From positions 80,829 through 144,828 of the forward strand of contig JAPPNN010000004.1 in assembly GCA_028873815.1 (NCBI GenBank): a stretch of DNA of 64,000 bases, in the 5' to 3' direction. Shown here one piece after another: positions 35,820 through 52,400 of this stretch. The notes under the pieces are model-generated. The model was not told where the DNA came from and ran no database searches. It saw only the letters and a list, made by a program, of their open reading frames with translations. Each line of letters begins with the position of its first letter. Positions within the stretch are counted from its first letter, which is position 1. This stretch comes from Gemmatimonadota bacterium. GTDB lineage: Bacteria > Gemmatimonadota > Gemmatimonadetes > Longimicrobiales > Gaopeijiaceae. The position numbers and the translations under genes are program-made.

Positions 35820-35988
35820 GCCGCGGCCCATCGGGCGACAGGGGCCGTGCGTATGGGGAGATGGGCCAGTATCCATGGGGCCATCGGGCGATGTGTACGT
35901 CCTTGCGTACACCGATTTCGCGCCGTAATTCGTAAGGTGTTCGAATGTCCCCTGTGCTGCAGGGATGCCCCTGTGTAAGGAGGTTCAC

Positions 35989-38931
35989 ATGAGATTGTTG
36001 ACGACAGTGCACCGATGGCTTCGGGCGCATCGGGCAACCACCCTGTTCACGCTCATCGCCGGACTTGCCGTGATCCTGCCGTCGGCCGTCTCGGCGCAGA
36101 CCGGCAGGGTCACCGGCAGCGTGCTCGCCGCGTCGAACAACTCCCCGATCAGCGTCGCGCAGATCCGCATCGGAGACACGGGACTGGGGGGCGTCACAGG
36201 TGAGAATGGCCGCTTTCTCGTCCTGAGCGTCCCCGTGGGCACCCACGAGGTCTTCGTCGAGAGGATCGGCTACCGGACCCAGAGCCAGACCGTGGAGGTA
36301 GCTGCGGGCGAGGCGGTGTCGCTTGAGTTCCGCCTGAGCGAGACGGCGCTGGAGCTGGACGAACTGGTGGTGACGGGGACGCCGGGGGCCTCTTCCCGGC
36401 GCGAGCTTGGGAACAGCGTCGGCAGTGTGCGGGCGGCCGCGCTCGAGAATACGCCGTCGCAAACACTGACCGAGATCCTCAACGGTCAGACGACGGGACT
36501 CCAGCAGTGGCGGAACGAGGGGCAGGTCGGGGGTGGCTCGAAAATCGTGCTGCGGGGCATCAACAGCATCAGCCAGGACGTGCAGCCGCTGATCTATGTC
36601 GACGGCGTGCGCATGAACAACAACCAGGGCATCTACGCCAACCGCTCCAGCATCAACCCCGGTCCGGCGGGTGCGCAGACCTCGCCCAATCCCCTCGACC
36701 TGATCGATCCGTCGGACATCGAGCGCGTCGAGGTCGTGCGGGGTTCGGCTGCCACGACGCTCTACGGCACCGAAGCGGCCGGCGGCGTGATCCAGATCTT
36801 CACCAAACAGGGACGCTCCGGACAGCAGGCCACCTGGACCATGGAGATGACGGGCGGCACGCGCTTCATGACGGGGAACAGCATGGGACCGATCCTTGGC
36901 AAGACCGACGACTGGGGATTCACCAAGCCTTGGTACAGCAACGGTCCGCTCGGCGAGGCCAAGCTCTCGGTTTCGGGTGGAACGAGCGCTCTCCGGTACT
37001 TCGTGTCGGCCGGCATGAACTACGAGGATGGGGTCATCGACAACAACGACGACCAGCTGTACAGCGTGCGCGGCAATTTCGGAATGCAGCCGGTGCCCTC
37101 GGTCAACATCAGCCTCAACACGTCCTACACCCACCGAACGACCAACTACATGGAAATGGGTGACAACGCCTCGGGCTTCATGCTGAACGTGCTCCGGGGC
37201 ACCCAGGACTACACCAACGCGGCGGTTGACCGGGACAACTACCAGGGCGATCCCGACCAGATTCTGTTCGATATCACGAACAGTGGCCGTGTCGAACACT
37301 TTGTCGGCGGCCTGACCACGACACACAGGGCCGACGGGCTCGGCCTGACCACGCGGCTCACCGTCGGTCTGGACTACACGACGGCCTTCAACCAGCAGAA
37401 CTTCCCGTTCGACCACGTGCTTCGGCCGCGCGGCCGCCGCAACCTGAACGAATGGGAGCACCGCACGATCACCTTCGACCTGGGCACGACCTGGGAACGG
37501 GAAATCGGCAACATGTCGTCCAGCTTCTCGGCCGGGGGACAGATCTTCAGCGACTGGGACCACACGGTCTACGGGTTCTCCGAGGACTTCGGCGGCCCCG
37601 GCGAGAAGACGCTCACATCCGGGGCGACGACCACATCCAGCGAGGATCTGCTCAAGGTGGTCAACGCCGGCTTCTTTGCGCAGGAGGTCCTGGGCATCGG
37701 GGACAATCTGTTCCTGACCGGTGGCCTTCGCGTGGACGGCAACAGCGCGTTCGGCGAGGACCTCGGCCTCCAGATGTATCCCAAGTTCAGCACGTCGTAT
37801 GTGATTTCGGATACCGATTTCTGGCCCAGCGACTTCTGGCCGGTGATGAAGCTCCGCGCCGCCTGGGGCCAGTCCGGCAAGGCGCCCGGGGCCTTCGACG
37901 CGGTGCGGACCTGGACTCCGGTGGCCGGGTATGAAGGCCAGGCCGGAGTCACGCCGTCCAACCTCGGCAACCCCGACCTCGGCCCCGAGCGCTCCACCGA
38001 GCTGGAGCTGGGTTTCGAGGGCAGCCTGTTCGACGACCGCGTCGGGCTTGACGTCAGCTGGTACAACAGCGTAACCAGCGACGCGCTGATGCCGGTGACC
38101 GCGGCTCCGTCGGACGGCTTCCTCACTTCGCAGCTGAGGAATGTCGGGAAGTTCAAGAACACGGGCATCGAAGTGGAGCTCAGGGGAGTGCCGGTAGCAC
38201 TCGACAACATGCGCTGGGAGGTGACCGGCCGGGTCTCCACGATCAACAGCGAGGTCCTGGAACTCGGCGAGGCACCGGAGTTCTTCCTCGGCTGGGGCTC
38301 GATCCTCGGCCAGTGGGTGCGCGTGGGCTATCCGATCGTTTCGCTGTGGGGTGAATCGGTGTCGAACCCGGACGCGATCGCGGATCCGGTCATCGAAGAC
38401 GATCACTATTACGGTCCGATCTACCCGACCCACATTCTCAGCGGCACGACGTCGATCAACCTCTTCCAGCGCCTCACGATCTACGCGCTGGGCGAGTTCC
38501 ACGGCGGACAGTACCAGTTCAACATCATGCCGTGGCAGCAGGTGCGGCGCGGCCTGTGGCCCGAGTGCAACGATCTGGGCCTGAACAACGCCGACGATGC
38601 CGCGGCGTGGTCGTCGGCACCGGCCATCTGGCGTGCCCGCTGTCAGTTGCCGACACCCAACTTCGACTTCTGGATGCGGCCCTCGGACTTCTTCAAGCTC
38701 CGCACGGTGTCGGCTTCCCTGTTGATTCCCGACGACATCATTCCGGGAGCCACGGGCACCACGCTGACGGCCACCTTGCAGAACTCCTACAAGTGGTCGA
38801 AGGGCGCGGGCATCGACCCCGAGCTGACGGTCGGCTACTACGGCGGCGTCGGCACGTTCCCGGCCCGGTACGAGTACTACCAGCTCCCGGCGCCGGTCAT
38901 GTTCTCCATCAGCCTCCGGGCCAACTTCTAG
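35989..38931 (+). CDS. SusC/RagA-type TonB-linked outer-membrane receptor (intact)
   Basis: AAGGAGG RBS. Signal ...SAVSAQ. CarboxypepD_reg-like TGRVTGSVLAASNNSPISVAQIRI. Plug IERVEVVRGSAATTLYGTEAAGGVIQIFTKQG. C-terminus FSISLRANF. Confidence 0.9.
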   Translation: MRLLTTVHRWLRAHRATTLFTLIAGLAVILPSAVSAQTGRVTGSVLAASNNSPISVAQIRIGDTGLGGVTGENGRFLVLSVPVGTHEVFVERIGYRTQSQTVEVAAGEAVSLEFRLSETALELDELVVTGTPGASSRRELGNSVGSVRAAALENTPSQTLTEILNGQTTGLQQWRNEGQVGGGSKIVLRGINSISQDVQPLIYVDGVRMNNNQGIYANRSSINPGPAGAQTSPNPLDLIDPSDIERVEVVRGSAATTLYGTEAAGGVIQIFTKQGRSGQQATWTMEMTGGTRFMTGNSMGPILGKTDDWGFTKPWYSNGPLGEAKLSVSGGTSALRYFVSAGMNYEDGVIDNNDDQLYSVRGNFGMQPVPSVNISLNTSYTHRTTNYMEMGDNASGFMLNVLRGTQDYTNAAVDRDNYQGDPDQILFDITNSGRVEHFVGGLTTTHRADGLGLTTRLTVGLDYTTAFNQQNFPFDHVLRPRGRRNLNEWEHRTITFDLGTTWEREIGNMSSSFSAGGQIFSDWDHTVYGFSEDFGGPGEKTLTSGATTTSSEDLLKVVNAGFFAQEVLGIGDNLFLTGGLRVDGNSAFGEDLGLQMYPKFSTSYVISDTDFWPSDFWPVMKLRAAWGQSGKAPGAFDAVRTWTPVAGYEGQAGVTPSNLGNPDLGPERSTELELGFEGSLFDDRVGLDVSWYNSVTSDALMPVTAAPSDGFLTSQLRNVGKFKNTGIEVELRGVPVALDNMRWEVTGRVSTINSEVLELGEAPEFFLGWGSILGQWVRVGYPIVSLWGESVSNPDAIADPVIEDDHYYGPIYPTHILSGTTSINLFQRLTIYALGEFHGGQYQFNIMPWQQVRRGLWPECNDLGLNNADDAAAWSSAPAIWRARCQLPTPNFDFWMRPSDFFKLRTVSASLLIPDDIIPGATGTTLTATLQNSYKWSKGAGIDPELTVGYYGGVGTFPARYEYYQLPAPVMFSISLRANF

Positions 38932-38958
38932 GGCCGTCGGGAAGAAAGGAGAGATACG

Positions 38959-40227
38959 ATGAACAGGCATATCAAGGGTTGGCGGGGGATCCTGGGGGCG
39001 GCCGCTTTCGGCGTGTTGCTGTCCGGATGCGACCTGTTCGAGGTCGTGAATCCCGGTCCGATCATCGATTCGGCGTTGGACGAAGAAGCTGCAGGCAAGA
39101 CGGTGCTGATCGGCGTGGCGGCGGACGTGGAAGTTGCGGTGGACGCCATGGCGTGGCTGGGAGGACCGGCCTCGACCGACCTGGACGCGGACGCGACGCA
39201 GCCCTGGCTGCAGGACGCGGGTGAAGGCCGGCTGACCGTGACCAACGCGGAATCCAGCTGGAACCCCATGCAATTGGCGCGCTGGGGTGCCGGGGCGGGA
39301 ATCGCCCGGCTCACCGAGACCCAGTCAGACGCGGCCACCAACCAGTGGCTGACGGCAGCCTACATGTGGGCGGGGTGGGCGAACCGTATTCTCGGCGACA
39401 ACGTGTGCATCGCGGTCTTCGGCGGCGAGGACACGGACGGGGACGGCAACGCCGATCCGGGTCGCGTCGAGGCCTCGGACATGCACTACACGCGTGCCCT
39501 CGAACGCTTCGAGACCGCGCGCAGCCGGGCGCAGGGCAGCGGTCACGACTCGATCGCGGTGGCTTCGACGGCGGGGATGGCGCAAGCCAACCTGATACTG
39601 GGCAACTATTCGGCTGCGGCGTCACTTGCAGCGCAGATCCCCGACGATTTCCGGTGGGTGGCCTACCGCTCCGACAACAGCGGACGCGAGTGGAACTCCG
39701 TCTGGCAGTTCACGCACGAGAATCAGAAGCAGATCACCGTGTGGAGCATGTACAACGACAGCATTGGTCCGGACACCGATCCGCGCGTGCCCTGGAGGGA
39801 CATGAACCAGACCTCGGGCGGTGGCGTGAAGCCCTTCTATCGCCAGCTGAAATACACCGACCGCGCGGACGACTATCCGCTCGCCAAGGGCCACGAGATG
39901 CGGCTGATCGAGGCGGAGGCCATGCTGCGCATGGGTGACCGGCAGGGCGCGATCGACAAGATCAACTATGTGCGCGAGAGGGTCGGGGTCCCACCGGTCA
40001 TGGCGTCAACGGACTCGGAAGCGTGGCTGGCGCTGGATCGAGAACGGAACTTCGAACTCTGGCTCGAAGCCCGCCGGCTGAAGGACAACGCGCGGTTTGC
40101 GGCCGAGAACCTGAGCCCGTGGGCGGTCGCGTTCATGCAGGGACGGCACAGTTGCTTCCCGCCGAGCCTGGCGGAGTGCAGCGCCAACCCCAACGTGACG
40201 GGGAACTCCTTCTGTAGTCAGGGCTGA
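38959..40227 (+). CDS. RagB/SusD family lipoprotein
   Basis: Lipobox LLSGC. 27 nt downstream of SusC-2. C-terminal RLIEAEAMLR...ERNFELWLEARRLKDNARF matches the SusD-like pattern. Confidence 0.8.
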   Translation: MNRHIKGWRGILGAAAFGVLLSGCDLFEVVNPGPIIDSALDEEAAGKTVLIGVAADVEVAVDAMAWLGGPASTDLDADATQPWLQDAGEGRLTVTNAESSWNPMQLARWGAGAGIARLTETQSDAATNQWLTAAYMWAGWANRILGDNVCIAVFGGEDTDGDGNADPGRVEASDMHYTRALERFETARSRAQGSGHDSIAVASTAGMAQANLILGNYSAAASLAAQIPDDFRWVAYRSDNSGREWNSVWQFTHENQKQITVWSMYNDSIGPDTDPRVPWRDMNQTSGGGVKPFYRQLKYTDRADDYPLAKGHEMRLIEAEAMLRMGDRQGAIDKINYVRERVGVPPVMASTDSEAWLALDRERNFELWLEARRLKDNARFAAENLSPWAVAFMQGRHSCFPPSLAECSANPNVTGNSFCSQG

Positions 40228-40240
40228 GGTACGGGCCGAA

Positions 40241-40259
40241 CGGCGGCAATCGGCCGCCG
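40241..40259 (+). terminator. candidate stem-loop between convergent genes
   Basis: CGGCGGC-aatcg-GCCGCCG, a 7-bp stem, 14 nt after the SusD-2 stop. Confidence 0.3.
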
Positions 40260-40346
40260 GGGTCGCGGGCGAAAGGCTTGCGGCTCCGGTGGCCGGTTTG
40301 CGTCGGGGGGCTGGTCCGGCGTCCGGCTCCGTGCCCGGGTGGCGCG

Positions 40347-40778
40347 TCAGCGCGCCTCGTCCGCGTCCAGGAAGCGGGCGGCGTGTTCCGGGGCCGGGAG
40401 CGCGCAACGGTCCCGCCGTCCGAACCAGCGGTAGCGGTTCCGCGCAACGAAGCGGTAGACCGGGTCGCGGATCGCGGCGGGGACCGCCGCGCCCAGCACG
40501 CCAGGCAGTGAGTGGGGGAAGCTGAGGCGGCGGGCGATCCGGAGCGCCGCCGCCGCGCCGGTGTGAACGCCTTCGCGATCGACCAGGACGATCGCGTCGG
40601 GCAGGGACTCGGCACCGCCCTCCACGCCGGCGGCTTCGAGAATGCGTTTGGACGCGGCGGATTGAAGCGACGCGAAGTCGAAACGCGCGCGTGTATCGCG
40701 CCGGAGCACCCACCGGACCGAGGCGTTGCAGAGGTTGCACACGCCGTCGAAGAGTATGACGGGTCGGGAGACGTTCAT
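40347..40778 (-). CDS. DCC-family thiol-disulfide oxidoreductase (DUF393)
   Basis: ILFDGVCNLCNASVRWVLRRD...F.SLQS is the DCC1-like signature. Confidence 0.85.
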   Translation of the reverse strand: MNVSRPVILFDGVCNLCNASVRWVLRRDTRARFDFASLQSAASKRILEAAGVEGGAESLPDAIVLVDREGVHTGAAAALRIARRLSFPHSLPGVLGAAVPAAIRDPVYRFVARNRYRWFGRRDRCALPAPEHAARFLDADEAR

Positions 40779-40866
40779 GGCCCCAACTTGACGCTGCCGC
40801 AGGGTTCAGTCCAACTATTGCTGCTGGCTTCATGACAGCGATTTCAATCGATTCAGGAGGGGGCGA

Positions 40867-41919
40867 ATGAGCGTAAGGCTGATGGTGGGGACGGGGAAGG
40901 GCGGATTCTGGGTCACCAGCGACGATCGCCGCGCGTGGAAGGTGGCCGGGCCGTTCTTCAAGGGATGGAAGGTGACGGCCGGTCTGCGCCTTTCCGATGG
41001 CCGTTTCATGGCTGCGGTTGCGAGCGACATCTACGGGCCCGCGGTCCATGTGTCGGCGGACGGCGAGAAATGGGAGCAGCTGTCGAGTGGCCCGGCCTAC
41101 GCGGGCGGGGGTGAGCGACGCCTGCGCGAGATATGGACGCTGCGCGAGAACCGGGGCGTGATCTACGCGGGTGTGCAGGATGCGGGCCTTTTCACCAGTT
41201 CCGATGGCGGCGCGTCGTGGGAGCCGGTCAGCGCCCTGAACGAGCACGCTTCACGGGAGGCCTGGATGCCGGGCGCCGGGGGCCTCTGTTGCCACGCCCT
41301 GCTCTTCGACGACACGAATCCGGAGCGCATGTGGTGCGGCATTTCCGCGGTCGGCGTGTTCCGCACGGACGATGGCGGTGCGACTTGGACGCCGAGGAAC
41401 CAGGGCGTGCCGGCGGCGCTCGAAGACAAGCGCCACAAGGGGATCGGCACCTGCGTGCACGGACTCGCGCAGGATCCCGACGAGCCCGACCGGATCTTCC
41501 GGCAGGACCACCTCGGGATGTTCCGCAGCGGCGACGGGGCGGAGAGCTGGGAGCGCAACGAAGAAGGCCTGGAGGTGGTGTTCGGGTTCCCGATCGTGAT
41601 CGACCGCGCCAGCAAGTACCTGTTCGCGGTACCCCTCGAGGCGGACCAGTACCGCGTGCCTCTCGGGGGAGCGCTCCAGGTCTACCGCAGCACCGACGCC
41701 GGCGACAGCTGGCACTCGGCATCGGCGGGGCTGCCCGCGGCCGACGCATACGGTACCGTCCTGCGCGGAGCAATGGCGGTGGACAACCTGGACCCGGGCG
41801 GCGTGTACTTCGGCACGACGTCCGGAACGCTGCACGCGACCGCCGATCTGGGAGAGAGCTGGACCAACATTCCGGCCATCCTGCCGCGTATTCTGCACGT
41901 CTCGGCGTGGGTCGGCTGA
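40867..41919 (+). CDS. BNR/Asp-box repeat beta-propeller protein (sialidase-fold-like, no signal peptide)
   Basis: Five clear Asp-boxes (SSDGGASWE, TDDGGATWT, SGDGAESWE, STDAGDSWH, TADLGESWT) plus SADGEKWE. AGGAGGG RBS. Confidence 0.75.
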   Translation: MSVRLMVGTGKGGFWVTSDDRRAWKVAGPFFKGWKVTAGLRLSDGRFMAAVASDIYGPAVHVSADGEKWEQLSSGPAYAGGGERRLREIWTLRENRGVIYAGVQDAGLFTSSDGGASWEPVSALNEHASREAWMPGAGGLCCHALLFDDTNPERMWCGISAVGVFRTDDGGATWTPRNQGVPAALEDKRHKGIGTCVHGLAQDPDEPDRIFRQDHLGMFRSGDGAESWERNEEGLEVVFGFPIVIDRASKYLFAVPLEADQYRVPLGGALQVYRSTDAGDSWHSASAGLPAADAYGTVLRGAMAVDNLDPGGVYFGTTSGTLHATADLGESWTNIPAILPRILHVSAWVG

Positions 41920-42197
41920 TGGGCGCGGTGACGGTCACCCTTCCCTCGCTGCTCGATCCGGCCACCGGGGGCGTGCGCGAGATGGCGGCTTCGGGCGAGA
42001 CCCTGCGCGAGGTCTTCGCCGACCTTCTCGCCCGCGAGCCGCGGCTGAAGCCCCACCTCTTCAACGAAGACGGAGAGCTGCGGCGCCACGTCCTCTGCTT
42101 CCACAACGGGACCAACACGCGCTGGCTGGACGGGTGGGACGAGGCGGTCGCGGAAGGGGACACGGTGCTCTTCATGCAGGCAGTGTCGGGTGGGTAG
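41919..42197 (+). CDS. MoaD/ThiS-family ubiquitin-fold protein ending in Gly-Gly
   Basis: 92 aa. ...VLCFHNGTNTR...AVAEGDTVLFMQAVSGG-stop is a typical beta-grasp sulfur-carrier C-terminus. The ATG overlaps the upstream TGA (TGATG). Confidence 0.7.
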   Translation: MGAVTVTLPSLLDPATGGVREMAASGETLREVFADLLAREPRLKPHLFNEDGELRRHVLCFHNGTNTRWLDGWDEAVAEGDTVLFMQAVSGG

Positions 42198-42206
42198 GGC
42201 CGACTG

Positions 42207-43298
42207 ATGCCCTCCTGGTTCCGCCGCTACCTGCTTCCGGGGCTGGTCTTCCAGTCGATCATCATCGCGGGGGGTTACGGCACGGGCCGCGAGCTGGTCG
42301 AGTTCTTCCTGGAGTACGGTCCGACCGGCGGCCTGCTGGGCATGCTGCCCTCCACCCTGCTGGTCAGCGTGACCTGCATGGTCGGGTTCGAGTTCGCGCG
42401 CGCCTATGGAAGCTACGACTACCGCTCGTACTTCAAGCACCTGCTTGGGCGCGGCTGGTTCCTCTACGAGATCGGCTATCTCACCGCGGTCCTGCTGATC
42501 CTGGCCGTGATCGGGTCGGCCGGGGGCACGTTCCTGGCCGAGACTTTCGGGATTCCGGGATGGGTGGGGGCGGTCGGGCTGCTGCTTGCGGTCGGCGTGC
42601 TGGTGTTCCGGGGCACGGGCACGATCGAACGGTTCTTCGCGGGGTGGTCGTTCCTGCTGTACGGCGCGTACATCGTGCTGTTCGCGTGGAGCATCGCGCG
42701 CTTCGGCGACCAGATCGCCGCCGGGCTCGGGGCGGGGGAAGTCGGCCCCGGCTGGTTTTCGTCCGGCGCACGGTACGGGGCGCTGCAGATCTCGCTGGTT
42801 CCGGCCATGCTCTTCGCGACGCGCCACATCCGCCGCCGCAAAGAGGCGCTGTGGGCCGGGGCGCTGGCGGGGCCGATCGCGATCATCCCGGGGCTGCTCT
42901 TCTTCTTCGCGCTCGCGGGGCAGTATCCGGTCGTGCTGGATCGTCCCGTGCCGACGAACCACCTGCTCGAAGTGCTGGGGTCCAGAGCGTTCCAGATCAC
43001 CTTCCAGGTCGTACTCTTCGGCACGCTCATCGAGACGGGGGCCGGGCTGATCCACGCCTTCAACGAGCGGGTGGACGGCGTGTACCGCGGCCGCGGCCGC
43101 ACGATGCCGGGCGGGCTGCGGCTGCTCACCGGCGCCGGATTGCTGCTCGCCGGCTATCTGCTTTCGCGCGTGGGCCTCGTGGGACTGGTCGGCACGGGCT
43201 ACAATGCCATGAGCATCGTCTTCATGGCGATCGTGGTCGTTCCGCTGCTCACAGTGGGCATTTACAAGCTGCGTGGCCGCGGAGGAGCCGCCCCGTAA
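42207..43298 (+). CDS. polytopic membrane protein (YkvI-like / transporter-like)
   Basis: 363 aa with about 10-11 TM segments. The N-terminus LVFQSIIIAGGYGTGRELVEFF resembles YkvI-family membrane proteins. 9-nt gap after the MoaD-like gene. Confidence 0.6.
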   Translation: MPSWFRRYLLPGLVFQSIIIAGGYGTGRELVEFFLEYGPTGGLLGMLPSTLLVSVTCMVGFEFARAYGSYDYRSYFKHLLGRGWFLYEIGYLTAVLLILAVIGSAGGTFLAETFGIPGWVGAVGLLLAVGVLVFRGTGTIERFFAGWSFLLYGAYIVLFAWSIARFGDQIAAGLGAGEVGPGWFSSGARYGALQISLVPAMLFATRHIRRRKEALWAGALAGPIAIIPGLLFFFALAGQYPVVLDRPVPTNHLLEVLGSRAFQITFQVVLFGTLIETGAGLIHAFNERVDGVYRGRGRTMPGGLRLLTGAGLLLAGYLLSRVGLVGLVGTGYNAMSIVFMAIVVVPLLTVGIYKLRGRGGAAP

Positions 43299-43318
43299 CG
43301 CTCGGTGGCCGAGCAGAA

Positions 43319-43342
43319 ATGAGTATATGAGTATATGAGTAA
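43319..43342 (+). repeat. three tandem 8-bp units ATGAGTAT/ATGAGTAT/ATGAGTAA
   Basis: Read directly from the sequence. The first two ATGs open 3-codon ORFs (M-S-I-stop). The third opens the long amidase ORF. Confidence 0.9.
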
Positions 43343-45065
43343 CTCGACCCCCACACGCGGGCTGCCTGGCACGCGGGAGACGGCACGCGGCAACGAAGGT
43401 GCGCCTGCGGAAGCCACGGCCACGGGCGCGATGGAGCGGCGCCGTTTCCTGGCGGCCGCTGCCGCCGCGGCTGCGGCCGGCGGCCTCGATCCGGCAGCGC
43501 TGACCGGCGCGGAAGGCCCCGGCCTCCGGGCCTCCGCGCTTCCGGCCACCGGGTCGGCAGTCCCACAGACCCCGCCCCAGGAGGCGCCGCCGCCCATCCC
43601 TCTCGGCAACGGCGAGCCCCCGGCACTCCAGTTCCAGGCCTACCCGGGCGGTACCGGCGCGCTCATGGAGAAGATGTGGCACGAGACCGGCGGCAATCCG
43701 TTCGAGCGCACCGAAATCGAGATCGAGCGCTGGAGCGGGCCCGTGCCGCACAACGAGGTGGACCTCGCGTTCCTCCCGGTACACCGCCTCGCGGCCCTGA
43801 TCCGGGCGCGGGACATCACCTCTTCGGAGCTGACCGAGGTCTACCTCGACCGTCTCAAGCGGCTCGATCCCGTGCTCCTGTGCGCGGTGACGATCCTGGA
43901 GGGCCGCGCGCAGGAGGAAGCGCGCCAGGCCGACCTGGAAATCGCGGCCGGTGACTGGCGCGGACCGCTGCACGGCATCCCGTACGGGCTCAAGGACCTG
44001 TTCGCCGTCGCGGGAACGCGCACGACGTGGGGCGCCGCCGACTTCAGCCACCAGTTCACCCGGTACGACTCCGAGATCGTGGTGCGGCTGCGGGAGGCAG
44101 GCGCGGTGCTCGCGGCCAAGCTGGCCACGGGCGAGTTCGCGCGCGGCGACCGCTGGTACCGGGGCCGCACCCTGAATCCCTGGAACCTCGACGAGGGGTC
44201 GAGCGGGTCGTCGGCAGGGCCCGGATCGGCCACCGCGGCCGGGTGCGTGGCGTTCGCGATCGGCACCGAGACGCAGGGGTCCATTGTTTCGCCCTCGAGG
44301 CGCTGCGGGTTGACCGCGCTGAGGCCCACCTTCGGCCGCGTGAGCCGTTACGGCGGGATGGTGCTCTCCTGGAGCATGGACAAGACCGGGCCGATGTGCC
44401 GCAGCGCGCTGGATTGCGCCCTCGTCTTCAACGCCATCCAGGGCGCCGACGAGAAGGATCCGGGGTCGCTGACCACGCCCTTCCGCTTCGATCCAGACCC
44501 CGACCTCGCCGCCATGAGGATCGGCTTCGACGGAGACGCGCCCGAGTCCTTCGTCGAGGCGTTGCGGGCGCTGGGCGCCGATCCGCAGCCCATGCCCGAG
44601 ATTCCCGACCGCCGCTCGAACGCGCTGGGTGTCGAGTCATCCGCCGCCTTCGACTTCCACGTCGCACCCGACGGCGAACCGGAGCCGATCCCCGAAGACC
44701 TCGAACAGGACGAACGCCGCCGCCGCGGCAGGTTCCGGGGCGGCCGCGACGTGCCCGCGCTCGACTTCGTGCAGTCGCAGCGGCGCCGTCACATCCTCAT
44801 GAAGGAGATGGCCGAAGTCATGAAGGACTTCGACATGTTCGTGAGCGGTTCAGGCCTGGTCGGCCTCACCAACCAGACCGGCCACCCGGCTGCGGTGGTC
44901 CCCTATGACTTCGGCGTCCGCAACCCGGATTCCGAGAGCCCGACCGAGATGCCGCTGACGACCACCCTGCTTGGCCAACTGTTTGCGGACGACAAGATCC
45001 TGAGCGTCGCGCACGCCTTCCAGAAGGGGACGGACTGGCATTCGAGGAGGCCGGGCATCGAATAG
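43335..45065 (+). CDS. amidase-signature (AS) family amidase with Tat-type signal
   Basis: MERRRFLAAAAAAAAAGG signal. KDLFAVAGTRTTWG and the GSSGSSAG Ser-cluster are typical of AS enzymes. The start could be 43335 or the internal ATG at 43431. Confidence 0.85.
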   Translation: MSNSTPTRGLPGTRETARGNEGAPAEATATGAMERRRFLAAAAAAAAAGGLDPAALTGAEGPGLRASALPATGSAVPQTPPQEAPPPIPLGNGEPPALQFQAYPGGTGALMEKMWHETGGNPFERTEIEIERWSGPVPHNEVDLAFLPVHRLAALIRARDITSSELTEVYLDRLKRLDPVLLCAVTILEGRAQEEARQADLEIAAGDWRGPLHGIPYGLKDLFAVAGTRTTWGAADFSHQFTRYDSEIVVRLREAGAVLAAKLATGEFARGDRWYRGRTLNPWNLDEGSSGSSAGPGSATAAGCVAFAIGTETQGSIVSPSRRCGLTALRPTFGRVSRYGGMVLSWSMDKTGPMCRSALDCALVFNAIQGADEKDPGSLTTPFRFDPDPDLAAMRIGFDGDAPESFVEALRALGADPQPMPEIPDRRSNALGVESSAAFDFHVAPDGEPEPIPEDLEQDERRRRGRFRGGRDVPALDFVQSQRRRHILMKEMAEVMKDFDMFVSGSGLVGLTNQTGHPAAVVPYDFGVRNPDSESPTEMPLTTTLLGQLFADDKILSVAHAFQKGTDWHSRRPGIE

Positions 45066-45093
45066 CCGGGCTTGCCGGACCGGACCTGCCGAC

Positions 45094-46878
45094 TCAGGAG
45101 CGCGCTGTTTCTCCAGAATCGACGGTCTCGCCTGCGACAGGCAGGTTGACCGGCAGGGCGGGCCGAACCTCCGAACTCAGGGCAAGGTGGAAGGCCTCCA
45201 TCGCCTCGAAGATTCCATCCCCGGCATGACGGAATTCGTCGGGAATGGCGCGTTGGCGAGCCATTACACGCTGTACCGCGTCCTGTCTGAACTGCTCGGC
45301 CACCCCCGATGCCGCATTGGGCCCCCACCGGGCTTCATTGAACGACGCCAACTCCGAATCCAGGGACGCTTTGAATTCCCGGAGAACAGTCTGCTGGCGC
45401 GTGAGCTTCTCGCAGTGATAACCCATGGCGGCCAGGCGGATCGCCAGCGGCAACAATCGCGGATGGTCCCTCGAGACTTTCGCGACGTAGCGTGAGAACA
45501 CCGGCAACTGGTCCGGGGTGAGGCGCCGCCGAATCCCCATGATGCTCAGGTAGAGCACGTGCTTGCTCGCTGGCTTGTAGATGTGCGGTACCGGATTGAG
45601 GTTGTCCAGCAGGGTCAGGCAGCGGTCAAAGTAGTTCTCCAGCGTCGAATCGTAGATGGTTCCGACGACCCGGAGGTATCCCTCCACCAGCGTCCTGGGA
45701 TCCATCTGCGGCTTGAAGTTCAGCGCAGTTGCGTCGATTTCGACGGGTTTGTCCAGCAAACGATTCTCGCGCTCCAGCCGTGCCCACAGATTCGTTCCCT
45801 TGAGTGCGGTCAGCAACCCGACCAGCGCGATCGGAATCCCGGCCCCCTGAATGAACTCGATCTGCGCATCGAACGCGTTGTCGTCGTCTTCGTCGAGGCC
45901 CAGGATGAAGCCGCCCAGAACCATCATCCCCTTCTGCTGAATCTTCCGGACGGACGTGAACAGGTAGTTGTCGTCGCGCATGTCGAGATTCTGAGGCTTC
46001 TTCATCTTCTTGAGCGCTTTCGGATTGGGCGTCTCGATACCCACGAAGACAGCGTCGAAACCGGCGTCGATCATGTCGTCCATCAAGTCGTTCATCCGGA
46101 CAAGATTGACGCTCGCTTCGGTGAACAGCGCATAGGGATGGCCACGCTCCTTTTGCCACTCGGCGATCACCGGGAGGAGCCTCGAGACTTCGCGCTTGTT
46201 CCCGATGAAGTTGTCGTCGACCAGGAACAGCGGTCCCCGCCAGCCCAGCTCGTACAGGTGGTCGAACTCGGCCACCATCTGTTCCGGGGATTTCGTTCGC
46301 GACACGCGGCCGTACAGCTTCGTGATGTCGCAGAACTCACAGTCGAAGGGGCATCCCCGCGAGAACTGCAGACACATGGAGTGATACTCGTTCATGTCGA
46401 TGAGGTCGAAGCGCGGAACCGGAGAAAGGGTCACATCCGGTTTTCGCGGCGCACGATAGACAGCTCGCGCGTTTCCGCTCTCCAGGTCGTGAAGGAAGGT
46501 CGCGAACGTCTCCTCGACCTCATCGAGGACGAAATGGTCGATTCCCTCCATCTCTTCGTGAAACGTGGTCGGGTGGGGCCCGCCGGCGACGACCGGAACC
46601 CGCGCGCGGTTGCAGCGCTCAACGACTTGCTCAAGTGAGGGGCGCTGCGGAATCATGGTCGATGTGAATGCCAGATCCGCCCACTCCAGATCGGCGTCTT
46701 CGAGGGGGGTCACGTTGAGATCGACCAGACGCAGGTTATACCGGGACGGGAACATCGCGGCGAGTGTGAGCAGACCCAGTGGAGGGAACGCCGCCTTGAT
46801 ACCCAGCAGATCCAGAGCATAATTGTTGCCCCAGTAAGTGGGAGGATGCTTCGGGTAGAGCAGGAGGGCATTCTTCAT
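45094..46878 (-). CDS. B12-binding-domain radical SAM protein with DUF4070-like C-terminus
   Basis: N-terminal cobalamin-binding-like region (PPLGLLTLAAM...VVAGGPHPT), radical SAM cluster motif CPFDCEFC, and a long C-terminal extension as in class B rSAM / DUF4070 proteins. Confidence 0.9.
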   Translation of the reverse strand: MKNALLLYPKHPPTYWGNNYALDLLGIKAAFPPLGLLTLAAMFPSRYNLRLVDLNVTPLEDADLEWADLAFTSTMIPQRPSLEQVVERCNRARVPVVAGGPHPTTFHEEMEGIDHFVLDEVEETFATFLHDLESGNARAVYRAPRKPDVTLSPVPRFDLIDMNEYHSMCLQFSRGCPFDCEFCDITKLYGRVSRTKSPEQMVAEFDHLYELGWRGPLFLVDDNFIGNKREVSRLLPVIAEWQKERGHPYALFTEASVNLVRMNDLMDDMIDAGFDAVFVGIETPNPKALKKMKKPQNLDMRDDNYLFTSVRKIQQKGMMVLGGFILGLDEDDDNAFDAQIEFIQGAGIPIALVGLLTALKGTNLWARLERENRLLDKPVEIDATALNFKPQMDPRTLVEGYLRVVGTIYDSTLENYFDRCLTLLDNLNPVPHIYKPASKHVLYLSIMGIRRRLTPDQLPVFSRYVAKVSRDHPRLLPLAIRLAAMGYHCEKLTRQQTVLREFKASLDSELASFNEARWGPNAASGVAEQFRQDAVQRVMARQRAIPDEFRHAGDGIFEAMEAFHLALSSEVRPALPVNLPVAGETVDSGETARS

Positions 46879-46885
46879 CGTTCGC

Positions 46886-49408
46886 TCACGACACCGCCGC
46901 TGTGCCGAACCGGCTGGCGACGAACTTGCGGTAGTCGGCGAATGCGGCTTTCACCTTGTCGCGGGTCAGGCCGTAGTCCGCGATATCGTACTTGTGCCGC
47001 GTCTCCAGGCGCCGTTGCTCCTCCTGCTTCCAGAACCAGGCTTTCATCGCCTCAATCGACTCGGCCTCCATCGGCCAGCCGAACCGGCGATAGATGCCGA
47101 CCACAACTGCGATGGGGTCGCTGACCAGATCGTAGAAGCTCACATCGTGCCAGCGGTGTTCCAGTTCGGGGTGTGACCGCCGAAACCGAGTCGCTCGGTC
47201 AAGCATGCGACTCATTGCTCTCAGTTGTTCGCTACCGAGCTCCGTGCGGGGGCGCGGTTCGCTGATATCCGACCGGAAGCGCTCCACCAGACTACACCAG
47301 GACCCCATGAATTCGACGGGTTCGCGATGCGTCTGAATGAAAAGGGCGTCGGGATACGCCTCGAGCAGGGCGCCCAGTTCCATCAGATGGGTTGGCATCT
47401 TGAAGATCCATTGGCCCTGGCTGCCCGGGTGACAGGCCCTTCGCTGGTAGTTGTAGTGCTGCATGGTGCGGCGATGCACGTGGTAGGCCTCGCGGGTGCC
47501 GCTTTCCTCGAGCCAGCGCTCGTACTCGGGCAACCGATATCGAGTCGCGAACACCCATGTCTTGAGCGACAACCTGAGGATCGGGATATCCTCTTCCGGT
47601 TCGTCGAGCCCGGCATGGTGAAGGCCCGCGAGAGTATCTACGATGCTCGCCGCTGCGAATACGTCCGCCGCCTTGATACGGCGGGGATCCCGGGGAGTGC
47701 CGACGACCGCTGCGTAGCCGCCGTCCGGAATGACGGGCTCGACGTATTCGTAGGCCCGCAAGGCCCAGAACCGCCGGTCCCGGGCCAATAGACGGTGCAG
47801 GAAGGTCGTGCCCGTCCTGTTGATGCCCACGATGAACACTGGCTGTTCGATTGGCTGCCGCCCGATCTCCGGCAGCCGCATGCGCTCTCCGGCCAGTTCG
47901 GCGTTGTTGCGCAGTATTCGGCACAGGTCGAACACGCAATGCCCGATGCGCTTTGCCAGCAGGCCGGCTTCGGGAGCGTTGAAGCCCTCGACGAGACGGG
48001 CCAATCCCTCCAGCATCCACTCGGGGTAGGTGGTGTCGAAGGACACGCCGTTGTCCCTGGCGTATCGCCGGGCCTGCTTCAGCACGCTGTCCAGGCTGAC
48101 CCCCAGCTGCGGAATCGCCTGCGGCCACTCTTCCTCACGGTCCCTGACCCAGCGGTTGTAGCGGACATACCTGGTGAGAGGACCCGGCCAGTTGATGTCA
48201 CCACGACAGTCCTCTCGAATGGCCCGGTCGGAGACCGGCAGCGTCTGGACCGTTTCGGAGCCCCGAAACCAATAGGGGGCGAAGTGATCGAACAGGGGCC
48301 AGCTGCGGGCCATCGGAGACGCGTCCCCGTGCGCCTGGCAGGCGCGCTTGAAAACGGCGTAGGGAACCTCCGGATAATTGAGGCCGAACTCCGCGAGCTG
48401 CATGGCCCGGTACGACGGCGCGTTGTTGCAGCAGCTGTAGATAGTGAAGCGCCGATTCACATTCATGGAAATGTCGGTGCACATGCGCGTCAGCGTATCC
48501 GCCGGATCGTCGGTGGCCCGCATGGTGAACCCCTGCGGAATCATTCCGACCTGGACCGCCGCCGCGAAGACAAGCTGTGGAGGGGTGTCCGACTGGGCGT
48601 AACCGGTGGAGGCCATGGTGGTTTGCCCGAAACGGAAGACCGCCGCCGGCAAGCCGACCTGATGCGCGAACAGGACGGCCTGTTCCGCCACAAGCTTGCT
48701 CCAGGCATACCCGAGCAACCCGAGCGGCATCACCCTCTTCATCCGACCCAGGTCCGGCTGCGCATGGTCGCCGATGTGACAGTCGCGGTATTCGCCGGCA
48801 AAGGAGTGCACGTACTCGGGGAACACACCCATGGTCGAGACGTGAAACAGGTGCTTGAGGCGGACACTCAGACACAGCCGGAGGACCTCGCGCACTCCGA
48901 GAGCGTTTACCTGGCGGAGAGACCGGTAGGACGCGATCAGGTTCGGGTTGGCCGCAAGGTGGTAGACAGCGTCGATTTGCCGGCACAGCCGGTCGAAGTC
49001 GTCGTTCGAGAGCCCGAAGCGGGACTGCGAGACATCGCCGGCGTAAACGCGGATTCTCGACGTGAACGCATCGTCCCAGGTCTCCGCGTGTTCCATGTTG
49101 GCGCGCAGTCGCTCGAAGCCGCGTTCCGCCGATTCGGCTCGCACGACGCAATGGACCGTCACTTCGGACTCGTGAGCGAGCAGGTCTCGCACGAGGAAAC
49201 GACCGACGAATCCGGTTGCGCCGGTAACCAGGACATTGCGAAAGTCGGCGGGCGAAACCGCGGGAGCCGGGGTTGCATCGGTTAGCGCGGCGCGAACGGA
49301 TCGGCGCAGAGTGGTGAGATCGCGCTGGCATTCGGGCGGCAGGGTCCCTGTCAGCGGTGGCACCTGGTGCCTTGTTGCAGATGCAGTGGCCATGGCGGAA
49401 TCAGTCAC
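46886..49408 (-). CDS. fusion protein: thioester-reductase-type NAD(P)-binding domain plus sulfotransferase domain
   Basis: N-terminal VLVTGATGFVGRFL...VHCVVRA...YHLAANPN (terminal reductase / NAD_binding_4 pattern). C-terminal PVFIVGINRTGTTFLHRLL (PAPS 5'-phosphosulfate-binding loop of sulfotransferases). The GTG start overlaps the PKS stop by 8 nt; an alternative ATG lies at 49393. Confidence 0.8.
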   Translation of the reverse strand: MTDSAMATASATRHQVPPLTGTLPPECQRDLTTLRRSVRAALTDATPAPAVSPADFRNVLVTGATGFVGRFLVRDLLAHESEVTVHCVVRAESAERGFERLRANMEHAETWDDAFTSRIRVYAGDVSQSRFGLSNDDFDRLCRQIDAVYHLAANPNLIASYRSLRQVNALGVREVLRLCLSVRLKHLFHVSTMGVFPEYVHSFAGEYRDCHIGDHAQPDLGRMKRVMPLGLLGYAWSKLVAEQAVLFAHQVGLPAAVFRFGQTTMASTGYAQSDTPPQLVFAAAVQVGMIPQGFTMRATDDPADTLTRMCTDISMNVNRRFTIYSCCNNAPSYRAMQLAEFGLNYPEVPYAVFKRACQAHGDASPMARSWPLFDHFAPYWFRGSETVQTLPVSDRAIREDCRGDINWPGPLTRYVRYNRWVRDREEEWPQAIPQLGVSLDSVLKQARRYARDNGVSFDTTYPEWMLEGLARLVEGFNAPEAGLLAKRIGHCVFDLCRILRNNAELAGERMRLPEIGRQPIEQPVFIVGINRTGTTFLHRLLARDRRFWALRAYEYVEPVIPDGGYAAVVGTPRDPRRIKAADVFAAASIVDTLAGLHHAGLDEPEEDIPILRLSLKTWVFATRYRLPEYERWLEESGTREAYHVHRRTMQHYNYQRRACHPGSQGQWIFKMPTHLMELGALLEAYPDALFIQTHREPVEFMGSWCSLVERFRSDISEPRPRTELGSEQLRAMSRMLDRATRFRRSHPELEHRWHDVSFYDLVSDPIAVVVGIYRRFGWPMEAESIEAMKAWFWKQEEQRRLETRHKYDIADYGLTRDKVKAAFADYRKFVASRFGTAAVS

Positions 49409-52400
49409 CCGCGACTGAACCGGCGTTCGGCACCGTCGACGAAATCACTCGCCGCGCGGATCCGTCGAAACCGGGAGCCGGGGCGGGTTCACCCTTTGGG
49501 AAGTGGTCCTCGAGTCTGTTCGCAAACGGAGAGCTCCGGCGCCGCGTCCGCTGCCCGAACGGTTCGGCCGCGGCGGCCGAACCGTCATCCTCGGCCACCG
49601 TGACGGCTTCGTGGTCCGAGGCCGCTCCCTCGACGATCGTCTGTGCCAGGGACAGAGCCGTCGCGGTGGTCATGAGTTCCAGGGCGCTGACCTGATGGTT
49701 GTACTGTGTCTGGATAAACGCTCCCAGTTCTGCGACCGAAATCGAAGTGAGCCCGAAGCTCGCCAGGGGCTCGGTCATGTCGCCCTCCTCGTGCCCGCAC
49801 AGTTCGGCTACCTTCGCCGAGATCTGGGCGACCACGCCTTCGATGGTGAGATCGCTTCCCAATTCGACCTCGAATGCCGCCTGATTGTTCACCAGACGAC
49901 CGTTGCGCATGTAGTCGGCGGATTCAACGGACCAGGGCGGATTCGAGAACAGCGCGGTGACGACATGGTCGCGTTCGGCCATGGCGCGCAGGGCGTAGTC
50001 CAGGTTCGCGATCGCGAAGTTGGCGCTGACGGTCGTCATCCCGGCCGCTCTCATCATCCGCATGACATGGAGGCTGCGCGCCGCCATCCCGACCTCGGTC
50101 ACGGGACCCAGGTTGTACGCGAAACCCGGGAGCCCCCGCTGGCGCCGGTACTCGGCCAACCCGTCCAGGAAGCTGCTGGCGCCGCTGTAGTTGATCTGCC
50201 CCATGTTGCCGAATGTCGACGCGATCGACGAGAACAGGACGAAGTAGTCCAGGTCGTACCCCGCGGTGGCTTGGTGCAGGTTCAGGGCGCCCCGGGCCTT
50301 CGGGGCGAACACGCGCGCCAGGGAATCAGGCGATGTGTCGAGGAAGGATCGGTCCTCCAGCGTGCCGGCGAGGTGGAATACACCCTTCAGGGGCTTCCTG
50401 AGCGCCCCGATGCAGCGTTGCACGTCCGCTTCGTCCCGCACGTCACCGGGCACGATGTCGATCTCGTATTCCTGCGGCATCTTGGAGAGCGTGGTGATCT
50501 GGCGGATCCATTCGACGTCGCGGCTGCGGGTGGGATCGCGGTCCATCAGCGTCAGGTGCCGCGCCCCGGCGGCGATCAGGTAAGGCACAAAGCGAAGCCC
50601 GAAACCGCCCAGGCCGCCGGTCACCACATAGGTTGCGTCGGGATCCAGGAAGGGCCGCGTGTCTGCAATGCCGAACCCCCGATCCATCGCGTCCTCCGGG
50701 GCCTGCAAGACCAGCTTGCCCTGGTGCTGGCCCGTGGTCATCAGGCGGAGGGCCTGCGCGTAGTCGCGGTACGGGAAGACCGTTAGCGGGGGCGGCGCGA
50801 CCGCTCCCTCAGCCATCAGGTCCATGCAGGCCTGGGAAAGCACATGCGACAGCACCGGGTCGTCGAGCATCAGCCGGTCCACGTCGATCGCCGCGAAGCG
50901 CAGGTTCTTGCGGAAGACCCGCATGCTGAGCGCGTTGTCGGTGTAGATGTCGACCTTCCCGATCTCGCAGTGCCAGCCGGAGGGGCGCAGCGCCTTGAGG
51001 CAGAGCGCAATGTGATGGCCCGCCAGCGAGTTCAACACGACATCGACACCTTCGCCTCCCGTAGCCTCCATCAGATCGTCGTACCAGCTGTGGCTGTGCG
51101 AATCGAAGGCCCCGCGCACGCCCATCGCCAGCAACTGCTTGCGCTTGCTTTCGTTTCCCGCCGTGGCGTAGATCTCCGCGCCGACGTGCCTGGCCAGCGC
51201 GATCGCGGCCTGTCCGACACCACCCATCGCCGAATGGATGAGTACGCGCTGGCCCTCCTGCAGGCGGGCGAGGTGGATCAGCGAGTAGTAGGCGGTCACG
51301 CAGACGGACAACGCCGACGCGGCCTCCTCCATGCTCAGACGGGGTGGTTTCAGGAAGGCGAGGTGTTCGTTTACCACCACCCGGTTGGCGATACAGCCGC
51401 CCGCCGTGAGCGCCACCTCGTCTCCGACCTTCAGGCGCTTCACCTCGGGGCCGGCGCGCCGCACCACCCCGCTGGCTTCGATGCCGACTTCGCGGCCGAG
51501 CGCCGAGCGCTCGTACGCCATGGCGGGCAAAAGTCCCAGCGTGACCATGACGTCGCGGAAATTCAGGGCCGCCGCCGCGATCTGGACCTCCACATCGGCC
51601 GGACCGAGGGCCGGCGGTTCGCAGGTCGTCATCTGGAGGCCGCTGACCTGCCCGGGGTTGTCCAGGCGAAGGCGGTACGGGGGATCGTCGCCGTCCGGAA
51701 CGAGCGGTGCGCGCTGCCGTACGCTGACGATGCGCGGCACCCACGGACGCCGCTCCCGGATCGCCAATTCGCGCTCCCGCGGGTCGCATCGGACGATCCC
51801 GGCCAGTGCCTCCAGGTCTTCTGCCGCCCCGATGTCCACGAGGCGGAAGTCGATGCGAGTGTCCTCGGCGAGGAGTTCCAGGGCTATACTGCGCACGGCC
51901 CCCCACAGCGCACTTCCACGCGGATCGTCGACGCCGCATATCGCGCCGCGCGTAATCACCGTCAGACGGCACTCGCGAGTCGCACTCTCGAGTCGTAACG
52001 GTGCCAAGGCCTGGAGAAACGCCACAAACTGCCACACGATCCGCTCCCCGGTGGGATCCCCGGGGTCGGTGCCGACAAAGAGATCGATCGCCTCAAGTTC
52101 TGCCGTCCCCGGCCATTCCTCCAGCCGGACAAAGTCGCCGGCTTCGAAGGATTTCCAGGGGATGTGATGCACCATCGGCGAATCGAGGTGCTGGATCCAG
52201 GCCTGGGCCGGGGTGTCCGGTTCGCCGATCACCCAGCGGGGACCCCGAGCCGCAGTGCCTTCGATCGGGTCGGCCCCCGCCACGGCTTCGGCACCGTGCA
52301 CGACCTCCGTCGCATCCTGCAATCCGGCCAGAGTGTCCGGGGCCTGCAGCAGCGTCGTGCGCGAGCCCGCATGCAAAGTCGTCCAGCCGCGGCCCGGTTC

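Follow-up and report, generated by a model that had tools for sequence, protein, structure and literature searches.

A conserved gene pair for a beta-propeller with Asp-boxes and for a ubiquitin-like Gly-Gly carrier, possibly a sulfur-transfer enzyme, in Gemmatimonadota and other bacterial phyla

The prokaryotic roots of ubiquitin lie in sulfur carriers of the ThiS/MoaD type and, to our knowledge, each known carrier of this kind feeds a defined partner: MoaE, ThiG, CysM, TtuA or BexX. Here we describe a gene pair in which a predicted carrier of this type accompanies a beta-propeller, a fold never before linked to such carriers. The pair lies in a 64,000-nucleotide stretch of DNA (the window) on contig JAPPNN010000004.1 (C7 in our numbering) of a Gemmatimonadota bacterium of the order Longimicrobiales, assembly GCA_028873815.1. 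An initial annotation had described a propeller gene of 350 amino acids (aa) that overlaps, through TGATG, the gene for a 92-aa protein ending in Gly-Gly (GG), and this layout is what we read at the locus:

40867..41919, + strand: Asp-box beta-propeller gene, first part of the core; open reading frame (ORF) of 350 aa, with AGGAGG 7 nucleotides (nt) 5' of its ATG
41917..41921, + strand: TGATG stop/start overlap, translational coupling; propeller TGA at 41917-41919 and carrier ATG at 41919-41921, read directly
41919..42197, + strand: ThiS/MoaD-family beta-grasp carrier gene, second part of the core; 92 aa, ending in ...FMQAVSGG, with TAG at 42195-42197
42189..42194, + strand: codons GGT GGG for carrier Gly91-Gly92, directly 5' of the TAG, read directly

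The propeller is leaderless, with no signal peptide, and is expected to be cytoplasmic.

To compare the pair among lineages we scanned one genome per species, which yielded 346 relatives of the propeller, and kept 80 loci. In every one of these a carrier gene lies past the propeller. At least nine phyla are represented, with loci from Longimicrobiales, other Gemmatimonadota, Planctomycetota, Rokubacteria, Eiseniibacteriota, Acidobacteriota, Bacteroidota, Rhodothermales, Myxococcota and Acidimicrobiia, and in most loci the two genes overlap by 1 nt or are separated by no more than 26 nt. Within an Actinomycetota sample, 108 of 301 genomes contain the propeller, and the carrier is directly downstream in each of the best 30 loci. 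Fifteen of these carriers have an ILPAVSGG-type tail and 15 form a more divergent subfamily ending in VVGAMAGG or SGG; the two subfamilies co-vary. Gene order is reversed in Ralstonia, Cupriavidus and Burkholderia, where a carrier ending in ...VIQALSGG sits directly 5' of a propeller of the type represented by the solved structure 3B7F. Conservation beyond the lineage was a check named in the initial annotation, and adjacency in these sets (80/80, 30/30 and 3/3 loci) bears it out. The pair is kept together in more than ten bacterial phyla, and conservation as a unit is limited to the propeller and the carrier gene.

Natural carrier-propeller fusions are rare (four clusters, P0147, P0271, P0272 and P0170); they have linkers of about 10-20 residues and keep the GG internally. 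The propeller occurs in 115 of the 201 Gemmatimonadota genomes sampled and in 5/10 within the genus of the source organism. The pair is patchy even within genera, and therefore looks like an accessory function. Twelve Actinomycetota loci that had been flagged as carrying stops inside were checked: eleven are without a stop in the propeller alignment, their flags most likely being due to a profile match running beyond the gene end, and the twelfth (L164), a distant match of 30% identity, has one stop, within an insertion. As a separate observation, a cassette resembling a HEPN/minimal-nucleotidyltransferase (MNT) toxin-antitoxin system lies on the opposite strand between propeller and carrier in some Longimicrobiales (L007:7075-7849, also L008 and L022, and in part L013:7098-7560), where it interrupts the usual translational coupling.

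Judged by its profile matches, the carrier is a sulfur-carrier-type ubiquitin-like protein of the ThiS/MoaD superfamily, CysO/SAMP1-like in character. Failure of the small ORF in ThiS/MoaD profile searches had been set beforehand as an argument against the initial annotation; the ORF passes, matching the Pfam ThiS model PF02597 with E 7.8e-10 and 39.6 bits (cut-off 22.5). The nearest NCBIfam model is SAMP1 (NF041918), at 52 bits under its cut-off of 60, and moaD_arch (TIGR01687), at 38 bits, is likewise under its cut-off of 49.5. Among solved structures, CysO (3DWG, E 5e-13) and the BexX partner (4N6E, E 4e-11) come closest, with MoaD and SAMP1 also found. The C-terminus is a free GG, and 78 of the 80 relatives end exactly in ...SGG or ...AGG. 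Several actinobacterial carriers (L106, L108, L109, L112, L116, L117 and L129) have 1-6 residues past the GG, with ends such as SGGG, SGGT, SGGATH, SGGGTG and SGGAPAPVR; such ends would have to be trimmed off before the carrier is activated, and there is no linked protease.

The propeller has seven Asp-box-like motifs, at residues 17, 63, 111, 167, 221, 275 and 325, and its AlphaFold2 (AF2) model has seven blades (predicted local distance difference test, pLDDT, 96.7; predicted template modelling score, pTM, 0.94), which corrects the six Asp-boxes counted initially. Against the Protein Data Bank, its profile matches one solved structure over the full length, namely 3B7F (E 5e-78, residues 3-347, 34% identity). 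Foldseek returns the same entry for the model, with a template modelling (TM) score of 0.93 and E 1.5e-32, and leaves GH74, Ycf48 and sortilin far behind. The propeller is a member of this 3B7F or 'YP_299179.1' family of seven-bladed Asp-box propellers. Its Pfam matches are generic repeat models only (Sortilin-Vps10 above cut-off, and BNR), with PSII_BNR as a weak match in relatives, and Pfam and NCBIfam searches gave no curated family that covers it. The entry 3B7F, whose crystal structure has been available since 2007, came from structural genomics of Cupriavidus (Reut_B4987) and is described as a 'putative glycosyl hydrolase with BNR repeats'. A single paper was found to discuss 3B7F, as a seven-bladed family without an assigned function (PMC2716378).

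Conservation within the propeller falls on a small set of polar residues, the motifs of which are encoded in the window as follows:

41287..41295, + strand: codons for Cys141-Cys142-His143, first Cys-x-His motif, where the inner strand of blade 4 begins
41452..41460, + strand: codons for Cys196-Val197-His198, second Cys-x-His motif; position 196 is TGA in some relatives
41503..41511, + strand: codons for Gln213-Asp214-His215, in a B-to-C loop on the predicted top face

Thr9, Lys11, His143, His198, Gln213, His215, Asp260 and Arg300 are invariant in paired, fused and solo members alike. Cys occupies position 141 in 110 of 115 propeller loci and position 196 in 111 of them, with TGA in locus L068 and residues other than Cys only in three betaproteobacterial loci. 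The motifs so formed are Cys141-x-His143, Cys196-x-His198 and Gln213-x-His215. The strand order of the AF2 model (by DSSP, the Asp-box being the C-to-D loop) puts these residues where inner strands begin and within B-to-C loops. We infer from this that the conserved Cys, His and Gln residues, together with Lys11 and Arg300, lie on the top face around the central channel, which is the usual active site of propellers.

The sole in-frame stop among the 115 propeller genes is the TGA at position 196 in L068, from Rokubacteria (CSP1-6). A second, independent gene, the metagenomic L166, about 68% identical, has the same TGA (L068:6589-6591 and L166:2113-2115). Both frames are otherwise intact and both read G-Y-U-V-H-A-L, within ...KDVGY-U-VHAL... 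in L068, and the L068 genome has selA and selB adjacent. Gene callers split these two genes into products of 195-196 aa and about 133 aa, and at least 11 clusters of publicly available gene calls end in ...KD[IV]G[YST], just before residue 196. A GGAUCC-NNN-GGAUCC hairpin 13-20 nt past the UGA is common to L068 and L166 and absent from the three Cys forms that were folded. The TGA forms are probable selenoprotein members of the propeller family. Alternation between selenocysteine (Sec) and Cys is typical of catalytic redox or nucleophilic cysteines, and because of this alternation we take Cys196 to be the likely catalytic redox residue. The propeller of the window has TGC (Cys) at this position. 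Its own genome (G000) encodes SelA (C53:34483-35589) and has a SelB match above cut-off (C49:93051-94133), and the source organism can probably decode Sec.

Neighbouring genes differ among lineages. Outside Gemmatimonadota, the pair is accompanied in 23 of 35 loci by a divergent Ser/Thr kinase that has TPR repeats and a length of about 720 aa, and 11 of the 14 kinase-bearing loci examined have an extracytoplasmic function (ECF)-type sigma factor directly 5' of the propeller:

L051-L083, e.g. L060:3064-5427 (- strand) and L052:5309-5929: kinase and ECF-type sigma factor directly 5' of the pair; loci of Planctomycetota, Eiseniibacteriota, Acidobacteriota and Myxococcota

Kinase-associated ECF groups have been described (PMC7826278). 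One cluster, P0140, has the kinase fused to the propeller. In L052, L062, L064 and L074 the carrier has a DinB_2 gene after it, and in L069:7087-7944 the GG end of the carrier is fused to a DinB_2 domain. The pair is flanked by ArsC and AhpD-like CMD genes in a Bacteroidota locus. A homologue of a DCC1-like oxidoreductase lies upstream in 42 of 45 Gemmatimonadota loci, directly so in most, and in none outside the phylum; as a neighbour it occurs in most Longimicrobiales loci and does not belong to the core shared among phyla. As functional hints, the sigma-factor/kinase, DinB and thiol-redox neighbours are circumstantial; together, the contexts suggest not a core cofactor pathway but a conditionally useful function tied to thiol or sulfur stress. 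Clustering the neighbours of 20 Actinomycetota loci of about 17 kb gave nothing recurrent in more than four loci. Seven related Planctomycetota loci (including L054, L056, L057:7404-8486, L051, L065 and L078) have a MoaA-type radical S-adenosylmethionine (SAM) gene, with a Mob_synth_C match, past the carrier.

In the window itself the pair has these immediate neighbours:

40347..40778, - strand: DCC1-like thiol-disulfide oxidoreductase with CxxC, divergent from the propeller; PF04134, E 1.3e-27
42207..43298, + strand: polytopic membrane protein of 363 aa, 9 nt past the carrier; about 9-11 hydrophobic spans
43335..45065, + strand: amidase-signature enzyme of 576 aa; PF01425, E 6e-59, 200.6 bits against a cut-off of 27

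The membrane protein is polytopic and placed as the initial annotation had it, and its 'YkvI-like' label is left unconfirmed: Pfam (even at E<5) and NCBIfam gave no match. A full-length homologue is found in about half of Longimicrobiales loci and in none outside. The amidase agrees with the exported amidase-signature enzyme expected there, having an RRRFL twin-arginine motif at about residue 32-35, the position of which makes ATG 43431 the probable real start; in NCBIfam it reaches no equivalog cut-off and is AtzE-like only far under the cut-offs. The amidase comes after the pair in the majority of Longimicrobiales loci, in some of them with the membrane gene missing, but in no locus from outside this order. 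Both genes, named in the title of the initial annotation, are lineage-specific neighbours and no part of the module. We considered the four-gene operon as the unit and rejected it, as conservation of its last two genes is confined to Longimicrobiales; elsewhere the neighbours vary. Scanning 40200-45400 for promoters and terminators gave no result above chance. Further along the window lie a B12-binding radical SAM protein (45094-46878, - strand), a thioester-reductase/sulfotransferase fusion (46886-49408, - strand) and a type I polyketide synthase (49401-54740, - strand). Upstream, at 35965-40227, are a SusC-like TonB-dependent receptor with a carboxypeptidase-regulatory domain and a SusD-like lipoprotein, syntenic among close Longimicrobiales relatives.

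Profile searches of the window's part of contig C7 gave no match to E1 (activating enzyme), JAB, MoaE or MoaC, in agreement with the earlier statement that E1, JAB and MoaE genes are absent from the window. No PALP or JAB proteins occur among the window neighbours or the annotated contexts of relatives, and no MoaE in those contexts; no E1 gene was found by tblastn in 108 pair loci totalling 1.4 Mb. A search of the rest of the genome for the cognate E1, proposed in the initial annotation, gave a MoeZ-type candidate, a ThiF+rhodanese protein of 380 aa (C42:138532-139674), which is unlinked to the pair. In mycobacteria MoeZR serves several carriers (PMC3227635). Three further E1-like proteins are encoded in islands of low GC content at third codon positions (C81:73194-74693, C38:124424-126037 and C49:31994-35371). 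Those on C81 (N-terminal to the E1 domain) and C49 (1125 aa) have a Prok-JAB match, the C38 protein is without a Pfam JAB match, and JAB matches in the genome fall on contigs C49 and C81 only. We set these three aside as the cognate E1, as they look like separate ubiquitin-like, possibly defence, systems.

The most informative features of the system had been missed in the initial annotation: the Cys-x-His/Cys-x-His/Gln-x-His pocket, the variant with Sec and, in other phyla, the context of sigma factor and kinase. We tentatively interpret the pair as a two-protein enzyme in which sulfur would be relayed between a carrier thiocarboxylate and Cys/Sec196 of the propeller, a reading that we put at a little less than an even chance. 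In outline, the carrier, a sulfur-carrier-type ubiquitin-like protein by profile, would be adenylated at its GG end by the unlinked MoeZ-type E1-rhodanese and converted to a thiocarboxylate, as is known for the family. Its flexible QAVSGG tail could then enter the top-face pocket that strand topology predicts, and sulfur would pass to or from Cys/Sec196 through a persulfide or acyl-disulfide intermediate, with possible assistance from Cys141 and from the triad of His143, His198 and His215, which might hold a metal. As final acceptor of the sulfur, a small molecule and a protein thiol are both conceivable. Stated more fully, and with confidence still just short of even, the pair may be a new enzyme class: a cytoplasmic propeller with a catalytic Cys/Sec and a His triad, which would use a dedicated ubiquitin-like thiocarboxylate as sulfur donor or reductant, in the production or repair of a thiol or persulfide compound, and would be switched on in several phyla by a kinase-controlled ECF sigma factor.

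A literature search found no paper on the propeller-carrier pair. The ThiS/MoaD-type carrier is a known element here, and what is new is a partner enzyme of a new fold. If there is a true sulfur relay, the pair would represent a new sulfur-transfer or thiol-stress pathway and a new selenoprotein family. The Sec/Cys alternation pinpoints the presumed catalytic residue, and the system is therefore directly testable.

Several points weigh against the relay. With no E1 linked to the pair in the 108 loci, activation of the carrier is assumed. The placement of the pocket rests on strand topology and not on coordinates, and an AF2 model of a natural fusion (pTM 0.78, tail block pLDDT 66) does not resolve docking of the tail. 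The energy of the hairpin past the TGA is not exceptional (z -0.1 to -0.4), and the hairpin overlaps a conserved DPxDP motif. Two copies of the propeller, both plasmid-borne, are solo. In the betaproteobacterial subfamily that includes 3B7F, Gly, Asp or other residues replace both cysteines and the carrier is kept, so the cysteines are not essential for every member. Beyond gene linkage and residue conservation, the mechanism is what we infer from sequence. The initial proposal of an uncharacterised carrier module stands: the three outcomes that it had named as arguments against itself were each looked for, and we find instead that the pair is conserved elsewhere, that the small ORF passes its profile search, and that moaE and moeB do not flank the pair in relatives. 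Of the two roles that it had offered, sulfur transfer seems the more probable and tagging the less.

Protein tagging of the Urm1/SAMP/TtuB type, by which an activated carrier would be conjugated to target lysines, is in our view unlikely. In one variant, tagging may start at an oxidised propeller Cys and leave a persulfide behind, as for Urm1-Ahp1, with the propeller as main target or as an E3-like platform. Such a role would suit the free GG end, the position of SAMP1 as the nearest NCBIfam model, the redox-type Cys/Sec of the propeller, and the ECF sigma and kinase genes that adjoin the pair in 23/35 non-Gemmatimonadota loci. There is also a precedent, in that two reports couple Urm1 conjugation to oxidative stress (PMC8561144, PMC12954526). 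Counter to this, annotated contexts and tblastn gave no linked JAB/deconjugase, E1 or E2-like gene, and some carriers extend past the GG without a linked protease. Furthermore, the strict 1:1 pairing and the fusions fit an enzyme subunit better than a general tag.

Alternatively, and in our view quite improbably, the carrier could serve a propeller enzyme or sensor non-covalently, as subunit or regulator, its C-terminus never being activated; a ligand sensed by the propeller may then feed into the adjacent kinase/sigma-factor pathway. The SGG-stop is near-invariant across phyla and in two carrier subfamilies, a pattern hard to explain without C-terminal chemistry. The alternative draws on the kinase-propeller fusion P0140, on the lack of a linked E1 gene, on the solo propellers, which retain all pocket residues, and on the GG end being buried in fusions; the last of these is weakened by the example of MoaX, where release of the carrier from a fusion is possible.

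It is also conceivable, and very unlikely, that the propeller is a metal-dependent hydrolase acting on the carrier C-terminus, where it would trim residues past the GG or free a product from a carrier adduct, as a counterpart in function to Mec+, QbsD and HcyD, which are JAMM enzymes. Trimming is unnecessary for most carriers, which stop exactly at GG; no enzyme for forming an adduct is linked; and a Sec/Cys residue speaks for redox or nucleophilic sulfur chemistry and not for metal hydrolysis. Arguing for a hydrolase are the invariant His triad with Asp and Gln, the lack of a JAB gene in annotated contexts, and the actinobacterial carriers with 1-6 residues past the GG, in loci where no JAB gene was seen.

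The carrier could also simply be the organism's MoaD, ThiS or CysO, serving ordinary cofactor or amino-acid synthesis. In its favour, MoaE was not found in the source genome (86% complete) though MoaC is present, and a MoaA gene lies past the carrier in the seven Planctomycetota loci. However, in all five complete genomes of relatives moaD stands beside moaE away from the pair, together with thiS, and the carrier of the pair is a further paralogue; MoaE is present in 10/10 pair-bearing genomes tested; thiS-thiG lies on contig C61 of the source genome; and the moaD_arch score of the carrier is under cut-off. The patchiness of the pair, even in its own genus, is a further point against such a role. 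On the sequence evidence, ordinary molybdenum cofactor (Moco), thiamine or cysteine synthesis thus appears largely refuted, and we regard it as extremely improbable. The propeller as a non-orthologous MoaE substitute, an idea prompted by the missing MoaE match in the source genome, was also considered and rejected, as the ten other pair-bearing genomes tested all have MoaE.

Finally, the 'exo-alpha-sialidase' label that databases propagate to propeller relatives is not supported, and an exo-alpha-sialidase or other glycoside hydrolase is scarcely credible: set against the Asp-box repeats, the name itself and weak profile matches to GH74 and GH33 are a leaderless seven-bladed propeller where the GH33 catalytic propeller is six-bladed, GH33 chains at only E 0.004-0.09 (no significant similarity), GH74 structures at TM 0.3-0.6 only, a conserved set of Cys, His, Gln and Lys in place of the sialidase Arg triad with its Tyr/Glu pair, and constant pairing with a carrier protein.

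Looking across known systems, the best solved relatives of the carrier come from CysO-CysM-MoeZ-Mec+, which makes cysteine in M. tuberculosis, and CysO-BexX, which acts in 2-thiosugar synthesis. Like CysO, the carrier has about 92 aa and an xAVSGG end, and the genome has a gene for a MoeZ-type E1-rhodanese at another site, as in M. tuberculosis. Unlike these systems, the pair has a beta-propeller as partner and not a pyridoxal phosphate (PLP) or ThiG-like enzyme, and it has no linked JAMM or cysM gene. MoaD-MoaE and MoaX offer another parallel, with a GG carrier translationally coupled to, and occasionally fused with, a dedicated partner, and with a tail-in-pocket arrangement that we presume for the pair; the propeller does not have the MoaE fold, however, and canonical moaD-moaE genes are separate in the same genomes. 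The solved structure 3B7F belongs to the same family and its betaproteobacterial relatives are likewise paired with a GG carrier, but its subfamily differs from the propeller of the window in lacking both cysteines and in its reversed gene order.

As with Urm1-Ahp1, SAMPs and Thermus TtuB, a ubiquitin-like protein of the thiocarboxylate type could react with a redox Cys under stress. The pair departs from those systems in its strict 1:1 partnership with a single propeller and in having no linked deconjugase. Sortilin Vps10 and Ycf48 are distant from the propeller (TM 0.35-0.55), are without the Cys/His pocket and are not enzymes; yet they are structural neighbours that bind C-terminal peptides, and provide a precedent for the holding of a peptide tail by an Asp-box propeller.

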